Assembly: GCF_964213995.1 (NCBI RefSeq)
Contig: NC_135804.1
Location: 116,312,001-116,376,000 of the forward strand
Source of the DNA: Mustelus asterias
Lineage: Eukaryota
DNA length: 64,000 nt
Reading direction: 5' to 3'
Shown one piece after another: positions 12,461 to 53,899 of the stretch (positions are counted from its first letter, which is position 1; every line of letters starts with the position of its first letter). Under the pieces are notes generated by a model. It was not told the origin of the DNA. It was given only the letters and a program-made list of their open reading frames with translations, and did no database searches. Position numbers and translations under genes: made by a program.

Positions 12461-12618
12461 ATGTGAAGATGCCAGCATTGGACTGGGTTGGGCACAGTAA
12501 GAAGTCTCACAACACCAGTTTAAAGTCCAACAGGTTTTTTTGGAATCTGAAAGCTCTGAAATCTCACAATTCCAAACAAACCTGTTGGACTTTAACCTGG
12601 TATTGTGAGACTTCCTAC
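12461..12618. mobile_element. Miniature Penelope-like fold-back element (hammerhead lost)
   Basis: 52-bp inverted arms (12495-12546 / 12569-12620), same tail as the 43.5 and 50.8 kb copies; flanking tggacttactagg / tggacttacttgg duplication. Confidence 0.75.
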
Positions 12619-12839
12619 TGGACTTACTTGGACCAGCTTACTCTTGCCTGATCACAGAAGGAACTGTAGAAGCTTGTGTAGGGCCTCAACTGATATTTTG
12701 GATAAGTTACATGTTACTTCTAAAGTACAAACTATGCTTTTAATTTACTTCATTACCTCTCTCCACCCTCCATATGAATATATTATGTTGCTTAATTGCA
12801 ACACTGCTGGTATAATTATTAGATATACTTCTACCCAAA

Positions 12840-29569: not shown

Positions 29570-29680
29570 AAGTTGCTGTTTTTTTGAGGGGGGGGGAGGT
29601 GGTGAGATTGATTTGTGGAGGAGCTGCAGTGTTGCTGGAAAGGGGAGAGAGAGAGGTTGCTGCCGCCGCCGCTGCTGCTG

Positions 29681-32600
29681 ATGGAGAGGCGAGGAGGGCT
29701 GGATGTGTGGCGAGGCGCCTCCGCCGCCGCCGCCCGCTACCTGCTGCTGGGGCTGCTGGCGCTGCGAGCCGGGGCCGGCGGGCAGGAGCGCGACTACACC
29801 CTGCGGGAGGAGCTGCCCGACAACGTGCTGGTGGCCAACCTGGTGCGGGACCTCAACCTGACGGCGGCGGCGGCGGCCGGGCTGCCGCTCACCTTCAAGC
29901 TGGTGTCCAAGACCGGGGACGCCCCGCTGCTGCGGGTGGAGGGCGGCAGCGGCGAGCTGTACACCACCCCGCACCGCATCGACCGCGAGAAACTCTGCGC
30001 CAATGTCTACAGCGACAGCCGCTGCTTCTACGAGGTGGAGGTGGCCGTGCTGCCCAACGAGGTCTTCCAGCTGGTCAAGATGCGCTTCCTCATCGAGGAT
30101 GTCAACGACAACGCGCCCCTCTTCCCCTCGGCCGTCATCAACATCTCCATCCCGGAGAACACCGCTGTCAACTCCCGCTACTCCATCCCCTCCGCCCTGG
30201 ACCCCGACGTGGGCATCAATGGCATCCAGCACTACGAGCTGCTCAAGGGGCAGAGCGTCTTCGGGCTGGACATCATCGAGACCCCCGAGGGTGACAAGTG
30301 GCCCCAGCTGATCGTCCAGCAGAACCTGGACCGCGAGCAGAAGGACACCTACGTGATGAAGATCAAGGTGGAAGATGGGGGCTTGCCCCCCAGGTCCAGC
30401 ACTGCCATCCTCCAGATCACCGTCACCGATGTCAACGACAACCGGCCCGTCTTCAAGGAGGGCGAGGTGGACGTCCACATCCCCGAGGACGCGCCGACGG
30501 GCACCTCGGTCATCCAGCTGCACGCCACCGACGCCGACCTGGGCTCCAATGCCGTGGTGCGCTTCTCCTTCAGCAACCAGGTGTCCGCGCTGGCCAGGCG
30601 CCTCTTCGCCGTCGACGCCGCCACCGGCCTGATCACCGTCAGGCAGCCGCTGGACCGCGAGGAGTTCCCGGTCCACAAGCTGACCATCTTGGCCAGCGAC
30701 GGCAGCTCGACCCCGTCCAGAGCTGTGGTCACCGTCAACATCACCGACGTCAACGACAATGTGCCAACCATCGACACCAGGTACATCATTAACCCCGTAA
30801 ATGGCACCGTCCTGCTGTCCGAAAATGTACCACTTAATACCAAAATCGCACTGATAACAGTCACAGATGAGGATGCAGATTTAAATGGGAAAGTTACCTG
30901 CTTCACTGATCACGATGTGCCATATCGTTTGAAACCTGTGTTTGAAAGCCAGTTCTTATTAGAGACTGCAGCCTTGTTGGACTATGAGAGTACTAAAGAA
31001 TATACTATTAAGATAGTGGCTTCTGATGCAGGCAAACCACCGTTAAATCAATCAGCCACTGTGGTGATTAAACTGAAGGACGAGAATGATAACGCTCCTG
31101 TTTTTAATCAGCCTGTAATTGGCCTGTCAATCCCTGAAAATAACACCCCTGGTACACAGTTAACAAAAATCAGTGCCACGGACGCAGACAGTGGGAAAAA
31201 TGCAGAGATCACTTACCTCCTGGGTCCCAATGCCCCATCCATCTTCAGTGTAGATCGGAGAACTGGCATTCTGTCAGCCATGAGGAGATTAGACCGTGAG
31301 AAGCAAGACCGCTATGTCTTTACAGTACTGGCCAGGGATGGAGGAAGGCCTTCCATTCAGAGCAATGCTACTGTGGTTGTGACTGTGTTGGATCAAAATG
31401 ACAATAGCCCTTCCTTCACACACAGTGAATACAACTTCTACGTGCCTGAAAACTTACCTATGTATGGGACAGTTGGACTTATCACAGTTACAGATGCAGA
31501 TGCCAGAGGTAACGCGGCTGTTAGCCTATCCATCTTGAATGACAAGGGTTACTTTATAATTGACCCCACCAGTGGTGTCATCAAGCCCAATATTACATTT
31601 GACAGGGAGCAGCAAAGTTCCTACACTTTTCAAGTCATGGCTGTGGATGGAGGTAGGCCTCAACGGTCTTCAGTGGCCAGGGTGACTATAAATGTCGTTG
31701 ATGTAAATGACAACAGTCCAGTGTTTGTGTATCCTCCATCTAACTTTTCGTACGAACTGGTCTCTACTTCTGCTAACCCTGGCTCTGTGGTAGGGAAAGT
31801 TTTTGCAATTGACAATGACACCGGGATGAACGCAGAGCTTCGCTACAGTATTGTCAGTGGGAACTCCAGAGGACTGTTTGCCATTGATCCAATGACTGGC
31901 AATATCACTTTGCAAGAAAAGGTGACTACATCAGACCACGGTTTGTACAGACTTGTGGTGAAGGTCATTGACTTGGGACAGCCTGAATCCTTGCATGCCA
32001 TGGCACTTGTGCATTTGTTTCTGAACGAAACCATCAATAATTTCACCTACGTCCAAGAGCTGGTGCGGAAGAGCATGGAGACTCCTTTGGACAAGAATGT
32101 TGGGGACAGTCAGATGACTCCACAGACCAATGATTATATTAAGATTGTTATTGCCATCATAGCTGGGACTATGACTGTCATCCTTGTCATTTTTGTGACT
32201 GCTTTGGTGCGCTGTCGCCACACACCAAGGCACAAAACTGTGCAGAAGGGGAAACAGAGTGGGGAATGGGTTTCTCCCAATCAGGAAAACAGACAGATTA
32301 AGAAAAAGAAACGAAAGAAGAAGAGGTCTCCAAAGAACCTTCTTCTAAATTTTGTCACCATTGAGGAGTCCAAACCTGATGACCCGGCCCACGAACACAT
32401 CAATGGTACTTTGGACCTTCCGGTGGAACTGGAGGATCAGACTATGGGGAAGTACAACTGGGGCAAAACGCCTACCACTTTTAAACCAGATAGTCCCGAT
32501 CTAGGAAAGCACTACAAGTCGGCCTCCCCACAGCCCTCCTTTCAAATCAAGCCAGAGACTCCGGTGCCAGTGAAGAAACACCATGTCATCCAAGAATTAC

Positions 32601-32734
32601 CGCTGGATAACACATTTGTGGTGGGCTGCGACTCCCTGTCCAAGTGTTCTTCGAGCAGCTCTGACCCCTACAGCGTATCAGAGTGCAGTTGTCAGGGAGG
32701 CTTCAAGACTGCAGGGCCAATCCACACCAGACAG
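29681..32734 (+). CDS. PCDH11: Protocadherin-11-like delta-1 protocadherin, large first coding exon (signal peptide, EC1-EC7, TM, proximal cytoplasmic tail); gene continues beyond the window
   Basis: Uninterrupted ORF with cadherin motifs (PE, DRE/DYE, six DxNDN linkers = 7 EC repeats), [24 protein letters not shown] and a basic KKKKRKKKR stretch. PCDH11-type residues as recalled: [61 protein letters not shown]. First ATG at 29681. Donor CAG|GTAATG at 32734/32735 after ...IHTRQ. Read-through gives VMQRF-stop at 32752. Confidence 0.9.
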
Positions 32735-33187
32735 GTAATGCAGAGATTCTAACTGGCCCTCACACAGAGATCTTGTCTTGAAGATTAAAAGCCTTGAATG
32801 GTCATGCATGGCTGAGGCATTGAAATGTAAACAGCTTGTGATTCATCAATGTTGGAGAGAGAAATTAGAATGAAATGGCATTTAGCTGGTGGTGATTGCT
32901 GAGTTGTTGTTTCAACAATATGGTCTCTAGGTGGCACTGTAGTACTTCCTGGGTGTACAGAAAGCTGCAGCAGTTGTGAAAAGTACTGTGGAGTAGCAAG
33001 CACAGGAATCCTGAGATGCGTAGTGCAGGTGCAATGTGAGGCTGTACAAAATCGATCTTTTGGTTTCTGTTCAGAGACGTTGGCACCAGCAGTAAGGAAG
33101 GGAGGAACAGACCACACATTACACAGCAAAACAGTATCCCATTATACTGAAGAACAAAGACAGTAATATATTTAAAAAAAAACTTGT

Positions 33188-43532: not shown

Positions 43533-44603
43533 TTGATGTGGAGATGCCGGCGTTGGACTGGGATAAGCACAGTAAGAAGTCTCTCAACACCAGGTTAAAG
43601 TCCAACAGGTTTATTTGGCAGCACTAGCTTTCGGAGCCTCAAGCTCCTTCACGTGACTGAGGACTTGTGTTCACAAACGGCATATAAAGTCACAAACTCA
43701 ATTTACAAGATGATAATGGTTGGAATGCGAGTCTTTACAGGTAATCAAGTCTTAAAGGTACAGACAATGTGAGTGGAGAGAGGGTTAAGCACAGGTTAAA
43801 GAGATGTGTATTGTCTCCAGCCAGGACAGTTAGTGAGATTTTACAAGCCCAGGCAAGTCGTGGGGGCTACAGATAATGTGACATGAACCCAAGATCCCGG
43901 TTGAGGCCATCCTCATGTGTGCGGAACTTGGCTATCAGTTTCTGCTCAGCGACTCTGCGTTGTCGTGTGTCGTGAAGGCTGCCTTGGAGAACGCTTACCC
44001 GAAGATCAAAGCTGAATGCCCGTGACTGCTGAAGTTTCCTGCAGGAAAGGATGTCCCGAGGCATGGTACATTGGGGAGACCATGCAGACGCTACGACAAC
44101 AGATGAATGAACACCACTCAGCAATCACCAGGCAGGAGTGTTCCCTTCCAGTCGGGGAACACTTCAGCAGTCACGGGAATTCAGCTTTGATCTTCGGGTA
44201 AGCGTTCTCCAAGGCAGCCTTCACGACACACGACAACGCAGAGTCGCTGAGCAGAAACTGATAGCCAAGTTCCGCACACATGAGGACGGCCTCAACCGGG
44301 ATCTTGGGTTCATGTCACACTATCTGTAACCCCACGACTTACCTGGGCTTGCAAAATCTCACTAAATGTCCTGGCTGGAGATAATGCACATCTCCTTAAT
44401 CTGTGCTTAACCCTATCTCCACTCACATTGTCTGTACCTTTAAGACTTGATTACTTGTAAAGACTCGCATTCCAACCATTATTTTGTAAATTGAGTTTGT
44501 GTCTTTTTATGCCCTGTTTGTGAACACAAGTCCTCACTCTCCAAAAGCTAGTGCTGCCAAATAAACCTGTTGGACTTTAACCTGGTGTTGTGAGACTTCT
44601 TAC
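43533..44603. mobile_element. Penelope-like element 3' fragment with inverted pseudo-LTR arrangement and GIY-YIG endonuclease remnant
   Basis: CRKGCPEAWYIGETMQTLRQQMNEH...LPVGEHF, then after a frameshift DLRVSVLQ...EQKLIAKFRTHEDGLNRD. Arms ~43570-44035 / 44161-44605 inverted. 11-bp duplication tgagttatgcc at 43522-43532 and 44604-44614. Confidence 0.88.
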
Positions 44604-45719
44604 TGAGTTATGCCAACCAGGGAGGGTGTAAGGGCAAATAATGGTCAGCTAGAGGCATTATTGGCATGAGTTAGTGCTAAATTGGCATAGGGGCTATAAG
44701 ATACCATGGGGTGGGTAGCAGGGCATAGGTTGCCATGGATGGTGGAGGGGCAAAGAGGGGTATAAAGAGGCATGGATGGGGCATAGAGAATATACAGGGA
44801 TGTCCTCTTTCATTCCAAGTAAGATGGAGTCCCAGAGTACCGAGTTGTCCTTTCAAACAGCCCGCTTCGACACCCAGCAGTCCTTGTGGCTTTCTCCACA
44901 CTGTTTCCAGCGGTGAAGAACCTGACTCCAGTGCGCCTGGCCCCTCAGAACAAACAGCCAGCAGTTCAGTGCTGATTCTCCTGAGGTGGGTTACTGAAGT
45001 CAAGAATGAAAATTCAATCCAATGTGTCTGTGTACTAATAAATGTCCATTGATATGAACCCTTTGAATATTTCAGTAACTGTTTCCTGAAGCAAGGTGTG
45101 TGTAAAGTTATGTAAAGCAAAATATGAAACTATGTAAAATGATAGTACACTTTGTGAAATATGCTGTCCATAAAATGTCAAAAATATAAAGGGAACATTC
45201 TTTGACTGTATTGTCCAGATGTAAAGGTGGTGAATAGTTGGGACACACAAATCGAAAGCCCATTCTTCCAGTGTTGAGCTATTTGATCTCAGCCAACAAG
45301 GCAGCAATAATTGGCCTCTGTGTTCCTGAGCTAGAGAGAGGTAACTTGACCAGAATTGTCACTCCCGCTGTTATCCAGTGTCTTCGTTTGAAACTATCTG
45401 TGAGGAGATATTGAGTGAGGATAAAGTCTGCCTCAGAAAAGCTGTTCCTCGGATTATTCTCTTGACTGAATAAACTGATGCCTCTGAATCCGTACCCAGC
45501 AAAATAAATTACTCCTCCTTCATGATGATGGAATGCATTTTCATGCATAAGATGTAGGAGCAGAAAGAGGCCATTCGGTCCATTAAGTCTGCCACGCCAT
45601 TCAATGAGATCAAGACTGATATGATAATCCTCAAGTCCACTTTCCTGCCTTATCCCCATAACCCCTGATTTTCTTACTGAGTAAGTCCTTCTGAACTTCA
45701 CGAGTAACCACTATTCATC

Positions 45720-46699: not shown

Positions 46700-49526
46700 A
46701 TTCCATAGCAAGACAATTTTTACCAGAGGTTAGAATTCCATATATAGCAGAGCGTTATTGTATTATTTCCAGGTAGGCTATGGTTCTTGGATTTTTAGTG
46801 AATGTGTTTGTCATCATTAAGGTGAAAAATAGCAATGCCATGGAATAAAACACTTTTACGAGCCCAGTATTTCCATCAACTAGAGCCAACTTAGATATAA
46901 GGGGGTTAAATTTCCCTCGGGGTTCTTCCAATCAGCCACTATCACTTTGTCAGAAGTTGTACGGAAATCCCAGAGAAATGCTATTGATTAGCAAGTGCAC
47001 CCCTTGTTGGAATACCCCATTCATGTTATATCTTATTGAAAAAGCCTTGTGATCTTTCCCTGCATATAATAGTGGATTAGATTGCAGAATGATGGCATAT
47101 TTTCATCACAGATGAAATAAGTAGGTGCTGCACAGAGATCCAAGATACAATGGCAATTTCTCACCAAAATGACATTTTATGTTTGATATGTGGATAAATA
47201 GCATTCATTTTTTATAGTATTTTGATATAAAAATGAATGAAATTAAGTACCTCCACTCTATTCAATTTAATTTTTTATCAGACTTGGCACTTTGGCTTCA
47301 TCAGATAATTTATTGATTTCACACACTTTAATGTCTTTAAGCTTGCAGTGAAAATTGCAGACTCTAATCTACCATATCTACACTGACAGATCCCTCTTTA
47401 ACACTGATGTCCAGCCTGTCTCTTGCTATCCCATGGCTTCTGTGACCCCCTTCAAGAGTAGATTTTTTAGAGAAAGGTTACTGGTATAAAGAGAGATTAC
47501 TGTCAGCTTGTTTAGAGGGAGAGGTCTGCCCTTGTACAGTGTGACTGAATTGCCTCCTCGTATAAAGAAAGACAATACTGTCCACTAGTTTGTAGTGTGA
47601 CTGAACTGTCTATTATGTGCGGGAGTTTCTGTATGTCTGCAAGCTTAGAGACTGAACTGACTGCCGAAATTGAGATAGACTGCACTGCCAGCTAATGTAA
47701 AGAGATACGGCATTGTCTGTTAGTTCATCGCCAATAAACAGAGAGATGGCATTTTCTTCTAGTAAATAGGGATTTAACTGGTTACTAACAACATGCATAC
47801 AGAAAGATGAACTGTCTACTGGGGAGGAGAGTGTTGGTGCTGTCTCCTAAAGTACAGAGATAGGATACGATCTACCACTATATCATTATATTGTTTTGAG
47901 TAAGATAAATGTTCCAAAGCTCCTGAAAGAATTAAGTACTACTTATACTAAAGCAAGCATATATATCCCAGATATTACAAACCCAGTCTGTTCTTTGAAT
48001 CTTGTTTTGAAGTATATTTTTGACAGAGTTAATTCTACAATGTAAACCCCTGGATAAAAATGCACCCCTTTGGCTGTTGCTTTCAAGAATGATTTCATCA
48101 TCATTTGTAAGATAAGCACTACCCTGATATGCCATCTGCCTGTCTTCTTTGATCTACACCACAAGCTTCCAGGCAACTAGGGAATGCCAGTGTGCTGCGA
48201 TCAAGCCTACAGCGCTGCCATCCTGCCTTGCACTTCTGTGACTGGAATTCAAAATCTGCTAAAGATTGCATTGATGTAAAAGGAAAGGGGCCTCAAGTCT
48301 GGCACTTGGCATTGTCAGTCGACATTCGTGAGTGACATTCGTGATGTTGGGACTAGGTGTTAGCGGGCCAGGCATGCTCTTTTATTAAGGTCAACCAGAT
48401 TTGAACATAAACAGTCCCCAGGTCGACCCCAGGAGGAGCTTCAAGCTGCATAGGGTTGGTGCATTTGTGCTGCATTTTATTTTCACATTCCTGAGAGGCA
48501 ATGCTTGGATGAGCTTTTGAGAGTTGTACATCATGTACCAACTTACATTGGATATAAAAAATTAATTAATAGCTCCAGTGTTGAAAGTATCAGTCACTCC
48601 ACTCAAAAAAAATAACTTAAGGGAAATGCTTTCATGAGAAAACATTATACAATTTTCTGCTAATGCCATCCACAGGACCTAGCTGGGTTTATCCCTTGAT
48701 TCAGCTGGGCCAGAAAAGCACAGATTGCACTGCAGAATTCTCAAGGGTACATTATATTACAGCAGTATTAATAGAGTATGACAGGAAATGCATTTTGGCA
48801 AGTGGTTTGGGGATGGTATCAGTGGGCTTCCATTGCTCCCTATGAATTCCAATACAGCCTGTGTATTTTGTATGCATAGTAAATCAGTAATATTGTACTT
48901 GCAGTTCAGTAATAACAGAGAATGTGCAATCATATACCTTCAAAACAAAGCCATGTGAAAAGCAAACAATAAAGCTGAAATAACATTACTGATTTGGCTG
49001 TGGATTAAAAATTATTGGAAACTAAATGCTGTTATTAACAAAGCAGGAGGAGGTTGATTTGTTGTATCATTCTAGTTCTGCCTTCATCTGGACGTTCCCC
49101 ATTCTACTCCCCTCTCTCTTTTCCCTCCTTTACCATTATGTAACACATGACTTCCCGAACAAAGAAGTGGACAGCGCTGGCCAGTAACTAGCCAGCAGGA
49201 GGTGTAGAAAAGCAAGGCAGGGTATCATAATCCCCAATTAGAATTCTCGCAGGATGGTGCTTCTTACTCATCAACCCAGCTGAAAGAGGGTGCCCACTAA
49301 GGTGGAAAGCGGAGACAAATGAGCCTGCTTGACCGGCATGTTAGTTAGCCAGTACACTGAGTCAAATGAGCCACCGGTAATAAAATGTATTAAAACCTGA
49401 ACAGTCAGAACCTTTGTGAAGATGAGGGCAGACTTCTTTGGTTCACCCTCTGTAGCAGTTGTAAGTGTAAAAGAGCACATCTCCAATCTTGTGAAAGAGC
49501 CCACAGAAGAACTCTTTCCCCTCATT

Positions 49527-49811
49527 AAAAGTTAAAGTTTATTTATTAGTCACAAATAAGTCTTACATTAACTCTGCAATGAAGTTACTGTGAAATTCCC
49601 CCAGTCACCACACTCCGGCTTCTGTTCGTGTCAATGCACCGAACCAGCGCATCTTTCCGACTGTGGGAAGAAACCGGAGCACCCGGAGGAAACCCACACA
49701 GACACAGGGAGAAAGTGCAGACTCCACACAGACAGTGACCCAAGCCGGGAATCGAACCCAGGTTCTTGGTGCTGTGAGGCAGCAGTGCTAACCACTGTGC
49801 CACCTTGCCGC
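49527..49811 (-). mobile_element. V-SINE, tail B
   Basis: Same family as 108-385. Confidence 0.88.
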
Positions 49812-50848
49812 CTCTATGTGCCAGTCACCTTATGGTGATTGATGTAATCTTGAAGCAGAAAAGGTGTAACAAAAAATTTTAAAAACACTCTTAGTTAAAA
49901 AGAACATGTTTGAAAAAGCTTTGCAAGTCAACGAATACCTGAGAGAGTGAGATGTTTAATCTATCAGGGAGACCAATTTTGATGATATGTCACAACTTAT
50001 ACTTTTTTATCCAAATGCTGAAAGGCCTGTGTGCATTGCCAGCATTATCTGTCGTTCTGTTTTCTCTTTAACCATTGGGTTACAGATTTGTCTGTAGTTT
50101 TAAGGGTTCAAATGCTGAGCACTCAATTAACCAGTTGCCTTTCTGCGTGTTCACAGATAGTTGTGCAACTATAGTTGTAACAAACTAGTGTAGTTGGGGG
50201 CGGGGGTGATGTGTATGTGTAGGGGCAGGGGATTGCAGATGGCAGATATTTGGAGTGAAACTGCCTGCTGCCCAATTGCCCCAAGTAAAATTGCAGTAAC
50301 TGTTAGCATGTCAACTTTATTCTGCAGCATGTAACGACATTCAGCACGCATTCTTTTTCCTAAATTTTTATTCTAAAACGGAACAGATTGCCCAAGTGAA
50401 ATTTTACAATGTGCCACTGGCTCATATTAGAAGAAATGCCAGACTCGGTCCCTAATCTGTGTTGAATAAACTGACCCTGCCCAGGGCAGCTGGATCACTG
50501 CGGTAGGGTTTTGCGTGCTGGGACTAAAGGAAGGAGAATTTGATGAATCTGCTTGGATTGCTACTCTTGGTATAGTGACCCTGGCTGGAAAATAGATATT
50601 TGTGTGGGCAGCACAATGACACAGTGGTTAGCACCACCGTCTCACAGCTCCAGGGACCCGGGTTCAATTCTGGCCTTGGGCGACTGTCTGTGTGGGGTTT
50701 GCACATTCTCCCTGTGTCTGCGTGGGTTTCTGCCGGGTGCTCTGGTTTCCTCACAGTGTGGAGATGCCAGCGTTGGACTGGAGTAAACACAGTAAGAAGT
50801 CTCACAACACCAGGTTAAAGTCCAACAGGTTTATTTGGTAGCAAAAGC

Positions 50849-50883
50849 CACTAGCTTTCGGAGCGCTGCTCCTTCGTCAGGTA
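50849..50883 (-). ncRNA. Minimal type I hammerhead ribozyme motif (second copy, opposite strand)
   Basis: Reverse complement reads tacCTGACGAaGGAGCagcGCTCCGAAAgcTAgtg. Confidence 0.75.
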
Positions 50884-50922
50884 AGTCGGAGTTCCCACTT
50901 ACCTGACAAAGGAACTCCGACT

Positions 50923-50957
50923 TACCTGACGAAGGAGCTGCGCTCCGAAAGCTAGTG
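50923..50957 (+). ncRNA. Minimal type I hammerhead ribozyme motif (PLE type)
   Basis: tac-CTGACGA-a-GGAGC tgc GCTCC-GAAA-gc-TA-gtg: CUGANGA and GAAA boxes, 5-bp stem II, palindromic AGCT mini-stem III, stem I UAC/GUG. Confidence 0.75.
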
Positions 50958-52351
50958 GCTTTTGCTACCAAATAAACCTGTTGGACTTTAACCTGGTGTT
51001 GTGAGACTTCTTACTGTGTTCCTCATACAGTCCAAAGGTGTGCGGGGTTAGATGGTTTGGACATGCTAAATTGCCCTTTAGTGTCCCAAGATGTGTAGGT
51101 TAGATGGGATTAGCCATGGTAAATGTGTCGGATTACAGGGATGGGGTGGAGGAGAGGGTTTGGGTAAGATATTCTGTCAGAGAGTCGGTGCAGACTGGAT
51201 GGGCCAAATGGCCTCTTCTGCACAGTCACGATTCTATGATTCTAAAGTTGCAAAAGTCAGGATTAGGGTTGGTGCTGATGGCACCCATGGGTAAATAGTC
51301 TGTTGACAGATCGAGAAACAATGCCTGGGTGAAGTACTGAAGGACCCTCTGGCATTTGTGAAATTGTGCCCCAGGAAGAGTTAGTGCCTGCAGGAAAGGA
51401 ATGGAGAGAGATGGACGAATCTTTAAACACACACATACACACACATGCTATTGTTCTGCCCCTGTGGCCCAATAAATAAAAGCACTGAAAAATTGGCTGC
51501 ACTTCAGCACTAAATAAATTAATGGGAGAGAAGTGTTTAGTCCGCTTTAGACACTGGTGGATTGTGAAACAGCTAATGAATAGGAGACCAATTTATTCAT
51601 TGTGCTTAAAGGAATTCAGCAGCAGTAAATGTATTATTGCAATAAATCCCTGAAAACTGAAGATTTAATGCAATAATGAAATCTTTAACCATGTGTTGAA
51701 ATTTATGGAGATCAAAGAGCTTGTCAGGAGAGATTGCTGGGTTGCCAACGAACAAGTCAGGTTGTTTGTTCTATTGGCTTATTAACTAGTTCACTGAGAA
51801 AATGCAATTTGATACGTTTTTGGGGAATCTGGGATAATTCTAAGGTTGGAGGTTGGAATGCCTTGTATTCTTTTAAGAAAAATCCTTGGACATGTGCTAT
51901 TTCTGCAGCATCTTCAACAGCAGCCTTCCCTAAATCCTGACTGCTGCATGTTTTAAAGCAGGTTTAAGAGTGTTCGGACTGTGCAGCCGACAAACAGTCC
52001 CACCCCTCCCACCCCCTCTTCAAAATGACATGTGTTCCTAGGATTTCCAGGTGAAACATCAAGAAACATGTTAGATTTGCTACTCTTAATTTTTTTTATT
52101 CCAAAATTCAAATTGAATCCAATTCATGGTCCCCACGAGAGGAGAAAACCAGATCCAGGCTGACGAGATAAGCATTGCACCCGATCTTAGGCTTGATCTG
52201 ACGTTTCATCTTTGCCAAAAGGCCAAGAAGGCTTTGAAAGATTGCATCAGGCGATGTCTCGGTTGAACCTCATCGGCTACCCTGATCTTTGACTCTACCC
52301 TACCCTGGGAGATCAATCTGCCTGATCATTGACTCTCCCCTGCCAGGTAAT

Positions 52352-52661
52352 AGGCGGCACGGTGGGTGTCACAATGGTTGGCACTGCTGCCTCACAGCGC
52401 CAGGGATGTGGGTTTGATTCCTGGCTTGGGTCACTGTCTGTGTGGAGTTCTCCATGCGTCTGCGTGAGTTTCCTTCGGGTGCCACGGGAGGGCTTCCTCC
52501 CACAGTCCGAAAGATGTGCTCGTTAGGTGCATTGGCCATGCTAAATTCTCCCTCAGTGTACTCAAACAGGCGCCGGAGTGTGGCGACAAGGGGACTTTCA
52601 CAGTAACTTCACTGCAGTGTTAATGTAAGCCTTACTTGTGACACTAATAAATAAACTTAAA
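52352..52661 (+). mobile_element. V-SINE, tail B
   Basis: Same family as 108-385. Confidence 0.85.
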
Positions 52662-53899
52662 GTATAGGTTTGCTACCCTCCCCCAGGGGAAGAATAGGAA
52701 ATTGGTGGTCAGAACCTGAAAAATGCCTAAAATATGAGAAGTGCCAGTGCAATCACTAAACACAATTGTGTCAGTAAATATACGCGTGATGTTGCAGTTA
52801 ACTAAATTGACACATTCTGCTCTATTTCTATGGTTTATATATGAACTTGAAATTTTAAATGGCTTTGGAAAGATATCAGGTTGATTGACATTTTTTTTTG
52901 ATAGATTGAATTTCTGATTTGATTGGCCTGCATCAGACTGAAAGGTCTTCTGATGGTGTAATGCTTTGCAACAAAATTACTTAAGGATCCCGAATGGTGT
53001 TTTTATTATTGATTTTGAAGTACTGCATATCCATTACGTCGACAGAATAAATGTCACTTCAGCACTGCTCAGAGTCTGCATAAGTATTGAGTGCAAAACA
53101 ACAAACTAGACCATCTATTAATCTACACTGTAGACCAAAATCTGTGTGTGCAATCTATATTTAATATATACATAATCCATGACAACTTTGAATTTTTCAT
53201 CTTTTATTTATGTTTGTGGTCTAACAGAAATGTACACCGAGGTACAGAATGAGAAACCAAACCAATCATTCATAAGATAATTAGTTGTTTTTTATTTAAG
53301 TGAATATATAATGTAAATAAGCAATTACATATTTCAGTAACTTTTGAATTAATATAAAATGTAAGGAGCTATTATATAGAAATATAGAAGGTAGGAGCAG
53401 GAGGAGGCCATTTGGCCCTTCGAGCCTGCTCCGCCATTCATCACGATCATGGCTGGTCGTCTAACTCAATAGCCTAATCCTGCTTTCTTCCCATAATCTT
53501 TGGTCCCATTCGCCCCAAGTGTTATATCCAGCCACCTCTTGAATACATTCAATGTTTTGGCACCAACTATTTCCTGTGGTTTAGAAACATATGCTTACAT
53601 AGGAGTGATGATATCGTGGTCCTACGACCAACAATCTGCTTCCATTTCCCGGTGTACGGCACCATAGCAGATGTGATGGGTCTGCACCTGTAACATCAGT
53701 CATCTGCAACTGTTAGAAACTGTACGGCACTTCCCTAAGGATGACAATAAGGAGCATATTTAAAATTTGTTTGGTGACATGGGTGACATTCCTAGTTGCC
53801 TTTGCGAATATGGATGTTTGCTTTCTTACTGAACCATTGCAATCCATGAGGTGAAAGTACCCCTGCCGCATCCCCTCACCCCAATCCCCCACCAATCCC

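Follow-up and report, generated by a model that had tools for sequence, protein, structure and literature searches.

The fold-back at positions 50757-51018 of the analysed DNA, a 64-kb window of Mustelus asterias (GCF_964213995.1, NC_135804.1:116,312,001-116,376,000, forward strand), is very probably a one-off, 5'-truncated insertion of an abundant Penelope-like element (PLE), in which two pseudo-LTRs (pLTRs) are joined head-to-head, likely through two-ended priming at a staggered cut, and in which two hammerhead motifs travel as passengers that are predicted to be masked. It belongs to a PLE family, is bordered by a target-site duplication (TSD), has a tail on one side only and a unique seam, and its target is a SINE in an intron. 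The fold-back is real and ordinary, its layout is already published, and it is not a mobile unit.

The first-pass annotation had placed the element at 50756-51020. The inserted unit is slightly shorter, 50757-51018, and positions 50756 and 51019-51020 belong to the TSD. The description of 110-bp inverted arms with a single mismatch in loop II holds: 109 of the 110 positions pair between 50786-50895 and 50911-51020 (99% complementarity over 110 nt), the two segments are separated by 15 nt, and the sole mismatch, 50867/50939, falls within the 3-nt loop II. The RNA of the fold-back has a predicted folding energy of −240 kcal/mol (z = −31, n = 100 shuffles). However, the arms are not equal and the centre is not a plain loop. 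The left arm (50786-50895), which is the 3' part of the pLTR with the element sense on the − strand, is accompanied by a 29-nt PLE tail at 50757-50785 (− strand), which is confined to this arm and in longer copies reaches the ORF start codon. The right arm (50911-51018) comprises the same part of the pLTR with the element sense on the + strand, has no tail and includes an AATAAA at 50971. The centre is a re-copied piece of about 21 nt, in which the hammerhead's beginning recurs with its core broken; it forms a seam at 50893-50913 (+ strand) that has a single match genome-wide; short microhomologies can be read from the sequence at both of its joins. A scan for bacterial promoters and terminators gave no result and is irrelevant to shark DNA.

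To define the boundaries of the insertion, each flank was aligned separately against other loci. Among 259 loci, 55 uninterrupted copies of the repeat span the same site, which bears out the proposed insertion in a SINE, presumably HE1. The 5' part of this HE1-like repeat occupies 50604-50756 and the 3' part 51019-51244 (both on the + strand). The TSD of about 12 bp appears as an overlap of the two flanks in the uninterrupted copies, in register in 52 of the 55; its left copy (50747-50756, + strand) has 10 nt and its right copy (51019-51030, + strand) 12 nt, the two differing by a 2-nt indel. Two inverted SINEs, at 49664-49812 and 50607-50755, lie 0.8 kb apart (81%), and a further intronic duplex is possible beside the fold-back. 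A weak match to U1 snRNA at 52206-52353 (− strand; 27 bits, E = 4e-4, under the gathering score) adjoins a SINE and probably represents a U1 pseudogene in decay.

At 29612-32752 (+ strand), an open frame contains the large coding exon of PCDH11X and, in the region searched, shares 94-99% identity with proteins from sharks, rays and chimaeras. The following coding exons of the long isoforms start at C4:116,784,474 and continue beyond, about 440 kb downstream; these small exons were located with a C-terminal query, having been missed by a whole-protein search. Since the next coding exon of the long isoforms lies so far downstream, the fold-back is intronic, about 18 kb into an intron of about 440 kb, and the protocadherin intron of the first-pass annotation is confirmed for the long PCDH11X isoforms, with coding exons found on both sides. 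We also observed that the antisense of the hammerhead start matches CAG/GTAAGT, which we take to be the consensus 5' splice donor, at 50878-50886 on the + strand and at 50897 and 50920 on the − strand. The fold-back places this splice donor and the AATAAA on the sense strand of PCDH11X, yet inside a hairpin, and one may speculate that intronic fold-backs are better tolerated than solo copies, with donor and AATAAA masked.

A Penelope origin had been suggested from the motifs, and is supported by the finding that the arm sequence ends copies that encode a reverse transcriptase (RT) and a GIY-YIG endonuclease. The window contains two further fold-backs of the same PLE family, each with its own TSD: a longer one at 43537-44609, which includes a GIY-YIG coding fragment, and a shorter one at 12462-12628, without an intact hammerhead. 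The parent was reached by walking from the longer fold-back to further copies. In one of them, L045, the arm stands at the 3' end of an element of about 2.7 kb with RT motifs, a linker and an endonuclease. The L045 frame, of about 800 codons with one stop, is 62% identical to its closest database protein (881 aa), which passes the Pfam threshold for RVT_1, and a more distant homolog passes that for GIY-YIG; its protein-atlas neighbours are animal RT/GIY-YIG proteins. The frame itself is degraded, and its own Pfam matches fall below the cut-offs (GIY-YIG E = 0.015, RVT_1 E = 0.24). Pieces with 73-85% identity to the PLE protein occur in predicted isoforms of shark XRCC5, PPP1R12A, FSTL5 and USP8 and are either exonised fragments or annotation artefacts.

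The parent is an endonuclease-bearing (EN+) PLE. An RT with a C-terminal GIY-YIG domain is recognised through the close homologs and the visible motifs, the 5'-truncated pLTRs occur as inverted and direct repeats (130 inverted and 4 tandem among 180 sampled copies), the tail is present at one end beside the ORF start (29 nt, ending at the ATG, where 30-40 bp are expected), and the TSD is short (12/10 nt). A copy that extends past the tail, L107, encodes the N-terminus of the ORF (53% over 77 aa, E = 6e-25), and in set-2 copies (90/90) its continuation is matched merely 0-10 nt beyond the tail motif, mostly to the ATG. The order of the parental pLTR resembles that of a small LTR, with a TATA-like box, an Inr-like motif at the front of stem I, the hammerhead, AATAAA, a GT-rich tract, the tail and the start codon; the subfamily with a U-A pair in stem I has no TATA-like box. 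The TATA-like and Inr-like assignments use what we take to be the consensus motifs, and we assume that the family is probably catalogued in Repbase or Dfam. Between the RT and the GIY-YIG-like region of the L045 frame we found a C-x4-C-x2-C motif. A Cys-rich, Zn-finger-like linker between RT and endonuclease marks the Neptune clade, and likewise Nematis, in the sections available of PMC3846280 and PMC8557442, and from this linker the parent probably belongs to the Neptune clade.

The presence of a hammerhead on each strand, of the minimal, dimer type, was verified with a descriptor for minimal type-I hammerheads run on both strands of the whole window. There are exactly two matches, one on the + strand with its core at 50926-50954 (motif 50922-50958), for which the cut predicted after 50954 agrees with the position given at first pass, and one on the − strand with its core at 50880-50852 (motif 50848-50884) and a predicted cut after 50852. 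Both cores consist of CUGACGA, an extra A, a 5-bp stem II and GAAA-GC-UA, and stem I has two Watson-Crick pairs and two G-U pairs. The core boxes, the extra base 9/10.1, the G10.1-C11.1 pair, the palindromic 15.2/16.2 positions, the NUH site and the lack of a stem III are those of the minimal type-I motif. A search with Rfam over 49000-53000 returned no hammerhead match at E ≤ 10, which is consistent with the motif because it lacks a stem III. Matches to Rfam miRNA families were rejected, being far under the gathering scores and reflecting the hairpin.

We then considered the motif across the family, in a survey of 161 loci, one arm each, pre-selected for intact core boxes. In this selection the extra A is present at 161 loci, U16.1 at 156, an H17 that is A, U or C and not G at 156, and GC at 15.2/16.2 at 149, with N7 free to vary. 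The first pair of stem I is C-G at 105 loci, U-A at 39 and mixed at 11. In the 20 recurring types, 97% of the stem cells are paired, compared with 26-47% when the partners are slid, and three stem pairs are changed on both sides, representing few independent events. On the basis of this covariation, the hammerhead fold looks to be under selection in the source elements, with few independent events behind the fit.

Folding with ViennaRNA, which cannot model a double hammerhead, supports as a prediction the earlier proposal that the antisense arm masks the ribozyme in either direction of transcription. The head-to-head arrangement means that transcription from either side reaches the antisense arm first, and stem II, which has a predicted probability of 0.88 in a single arm, drops to 8e-16 in the full hairpin. 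Both hammerheads of the fold-back are accordingly modelled as masked by the hairpin and predicted to be likely inactive. Stem I is weak even in the single arm (predicted 0.07), two-strand folding of single arms leads to an alternative duplex and not to a hammerhead dimer, and the duplex of single arms centred on AGCU reaches just −4.5 kcal/mol. Published minimal hammerheads show no cleavage as monomers and weak cleavage as dimers in the sections available of PMC4209133, and the hammerhead of PAc requires the element's own protein, according to parts of PMC11167929.

To estimate the abundance of the family, exact matches to two variants of the tail were counted genome-wide, giving 24,320 and 5,239, with 0 for the reversed-pattern controls. 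The first 90 listed matches of each variant were sampled (n = 180, all in the first ~47 Mb of contig C1), so that the census is anchored on intact tails. Apart from the inverted and tandem copies given above, 44 were solo or complex and 2 ran off the locus. In the simple fold-backs (n = 116), the second arm ends at a median of 32 nt short of the tail end, and a TSD of ≥8 nt is found in 89 of them, compared with 1.2% of shuffled flank pairs. Their length has a median of 247 bp and a continuous range of 79-1695 bp, and 67 have a hammerhead core in both arms. Extrapolation gives a genome total of about 20,000 or more fold-backs, as a rough lower bound.

These data bear on the proposal, made at first pass, that the fold-back could be a non-autonomous, retrozyme/MITE-like hairpin unit with self-masked ribozymes. 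Inverted termini, a TSD and intact cores are compatible with such a unit, but a fixed unit present at many independent sites is not what is observed: the seam of the copy at 50757-51018 is single-copy genome-wide, even with CpG variants allowed. The first-pass annotation had itself considered loops that differ from copy to copy as the mark of an insertion by-product, and the single-copy seam leads to this outcome. In the best 40 matches to the fold-back the seams differ, save in copies that share their flanks too. The 156 fold-backs that we compared form a continuum of lengths and seams, in which common seams go with common flanks (two local duplications), with the exception of one two-copy pair, L231 (C1, ~33.33 Mb) and L232 (~34.90 Mb), which have the same seam and the same arm-specific variants in unrelated flanks. 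This pair favours a mobile unit, but its seam exists in exactly two copies genome-wide, 1.6 Mb apart and with a clear TSD at one only, which points to one local copying event, by re-mobilisation or ectopic gene conversion, and not to a family; fold-backs can therefore occasionally be copied. Furthermore, both arms end at or before the 3' edge of the hammerhead in 20 of the 116 simple fold-backs, and the motifs lie on opposite strands, without the same-sense tandem arrangement of non-LTR retrozymes. We consider a mobile unit highly improbable, and largely refuted for the copy at 50757-51018. Identical fold-backs with shared flanks were also seen at L009/L013 (C14) and L070-L072, representing local duplications or redundant contigs, and L168/L200 were discarded as a same-centre pair, having simple symmetric seams that differ despite the similarity score.

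For the origin of the two arms, we lean towards two-ended priming at two internal RT start sites. In parts of PMC11167929, the PAc protein is described to cut and extend both strands in vitro, with RT starting internally at two sites, one on either side of the tail. In the favoured view, the one-sided tail, the fixed offset of ~32 nt and the TSD result from priming at both ends of one staggered cut. The GIY-YIG endonuclease of the parent would cut the SINE with a stagger of about 12 nt; the left target end would then prime cDNA synthesis from the distal of the two start sites, located at the ORF start codon, yielding the tailed arm, and the right target end would prime about 30 nt further upstream, yielding the tail-less arm. 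Synthesis of both cDNAs would halt at a point about 44 nt upstream of where the ribozyme cuts, in one case after a back-slip of about 23 nt, and the two would be united at the quasi-palindrome just before stem I. In a transcript of the host gene, from either strand, the antisense arm would come first and leave the ribozyme unfolded, and no stem III would be available unless a second same-sense copy were present.

The second arm could instead have been made by snap-back, in which a single cDNA (or antisense template) folds on a local palindrome and primes itself, leaving the PLE origin unchanged; we regard this as possible, but rather unlikely. Self-priming at a junction palindrome has been proposed (part of PMC3846280), and the left arm together with the middle piece does form a near-perfect palindrome with a 2-nt loop. 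A base common to both arms of the fold-back is present in 0 of 125 other arms, with the middle piece retaining the family base, which calls for copying from one arm to the other, either at insertion or later. The 5' ends of the two arms lie within 10 nt of each other in 53 of the 116 simple fold-backs (permutation mean 12, maximum 23), a symmetry that is explained more simply by snap-back than by two independent cDNAs, and the arms are mostly of the same subfamily (40/46, by length class). On the other hand, 63 of the 116 are not symmetric within 10 nt, and the 3' end of the second arm is fixed ~32 nt before the tail end, matching the second RT start site described in parts of PMC11167929. Also, at least 4 of the 75 parsed fold-backs (L148, L193, L228 and L247, judged by eye) combine arms of different recurring subfamily types, which speaks against snap-back, although later gene conversion could have produced such mixed arms. 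Divergence of the arms by an indel or ≥2 changes is seen in 19 of the 75 and is mostly explainable by decay. Homogenisation between arms throughout the family was considered and is unsupported (one CpG, with 1 concordant versus 2 discordant double decays).

It is improbable that the host keeps the intronic hairpin for a role of its own, either as a source of dsRNA or endo-siRNA against the parent or as a substrate for A-to-I editing in the PCDH11X pre-mRNA. A near-perfect duplex of ~110 bp in the intron of an intact gene would form upon transcription of the intron, but nothing distinguishes the copy at 50757-51018 from the extrapolated 20,000 or more alike, and its insertion in a SINE looks recent. 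Formation of dsRNA is possible as a side-effect of the whole PLE family.

The positions at which the copies are truncated were explored with 157 of the 180 tail arms and 105 of the 116 second arms, the shortest arms being unanchored, and three loci were removed as putative duplicates by flank similarity. Two intervals show a modest, 2.5- to 6-fold excess of 5' ends: −3..+5 of the predicted cut and −38..−32, at the front of stem I, where many, not all, subfamilies have an Inr-like motif ~30 nt past the TATA-like box. The nominal p values are 1e-3 to 1e-5, for intervals picked after viewing the data. Variation between subfamilies can halt alignments at these places, local palindromes can provide sites for joining, and among solo copies the cut has no surplus of ends (3 ends, ratio 1.2). 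In the copy at 50757-51018 the arm ends lie ~44 nt upstream of the cut, and this copy is therefore itself no evidence of cleavage. It is conceivable, though doubtful, that the tens of thousands of stubs are a fossil record of a PLE cycle in which two RNAs, paired through the palindromic hammerhead stem III on a dimeric RT-endonuclease, are copied from both ends of one cut, with the cDNAs running off at RNA 5' ends that stem either from transcription start at the front of stem I or from the ribozyme.

According to the sections available of PMC3846280, PMC8557442 and PMC2377424, PLE insertions typically consist of inverted, 5'-truncated pLTRs, with a tail at one side and a TSD. Adineta Pen2a_Av (PMC3846280), the general PLE scheme (PMC8557442) and D. 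virilis Penelope (PMC2377424), as described in those sections, have in common with the shark fold-back the head-to-head pLTRs, a tail of ~30 bp on one arm that adjoins the ORF start, a short TSD and a palindromic seam; the TATA-like and Inr-like motifs of the pLTR are common to these EN+ PLEs and the shark parent. In contrast, the shark fold-back is reduced to two pLTR halves and lacks any coding portion, as do the majority of copies in our sample, and its TSD is ~12 bp, compared with 8-10 bp in the EN+ PLE insertions. With the minimal hammerheads presented in parts of PMC4209133, the cores have in common the CUGANGA and GAAA boxes, an unpaired base before stem II, G10.1-C11.1, the palindromic 15.2-16.2, the lack of a loop III and a short stem I. 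Dual minimal hammerheads on opposite strands are also reported there, at ~100-700 bp from each other, whereas the shark cores are ~45 bp apart, and no shark family is named in those parts.

PAc (Poseidon, Anolis), according to the sections available of PMC11167929, likewise has a tail delimited by two internal RT start sites and both strands cut and extended, and its protein-assisted hammerhead lies in the pLTR-ORF region, similar to the placement in the shark PLE. In PAc the ORF begins inside the hammerhead and the tail is found >110 nt inside the ORF, whereas the shark PLE has its hammerhead ~95 nt upstream and a tail that stops at the start codon; the Cys-rich, Neptune-like linker of the shark parent is a further difference. 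Animal non-LTR retrozymes, as described in parts of 10.64898/2026.07.22.740005, are also non-coding, hammerhead-bearing and PLE-derived, but they are same-sense tandem units amplified as families, in contrast to the inverted fold-back with its single-copy seam. A literature search, judged partly by title, found no publication on this shark PLE family or on shark fold-backs.

As one stub among many, a single fold-back is of little weight. The shark PLE family is a large natural dataset on how PLEs make inverted ends and on what the hammerhead does; for PAc, cleavage is dispensable in vitro and no RNA ends were seen at the cut, in the parts of PMC11167929 that deal with it. Mapping, across the whole genome, where the arms end and which subfamilies they belong to could separate two-ended priming from snap-back and probe cleavage in vivo, with no bench work. 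If the stubs were indeed such a fossil record, they would provide evidence for cutting of the template by PLE hammerheads in vivo, and transcription of intronic fold-backs, if common, would hypothetically make them an abundant source of dsRNA in sharks.
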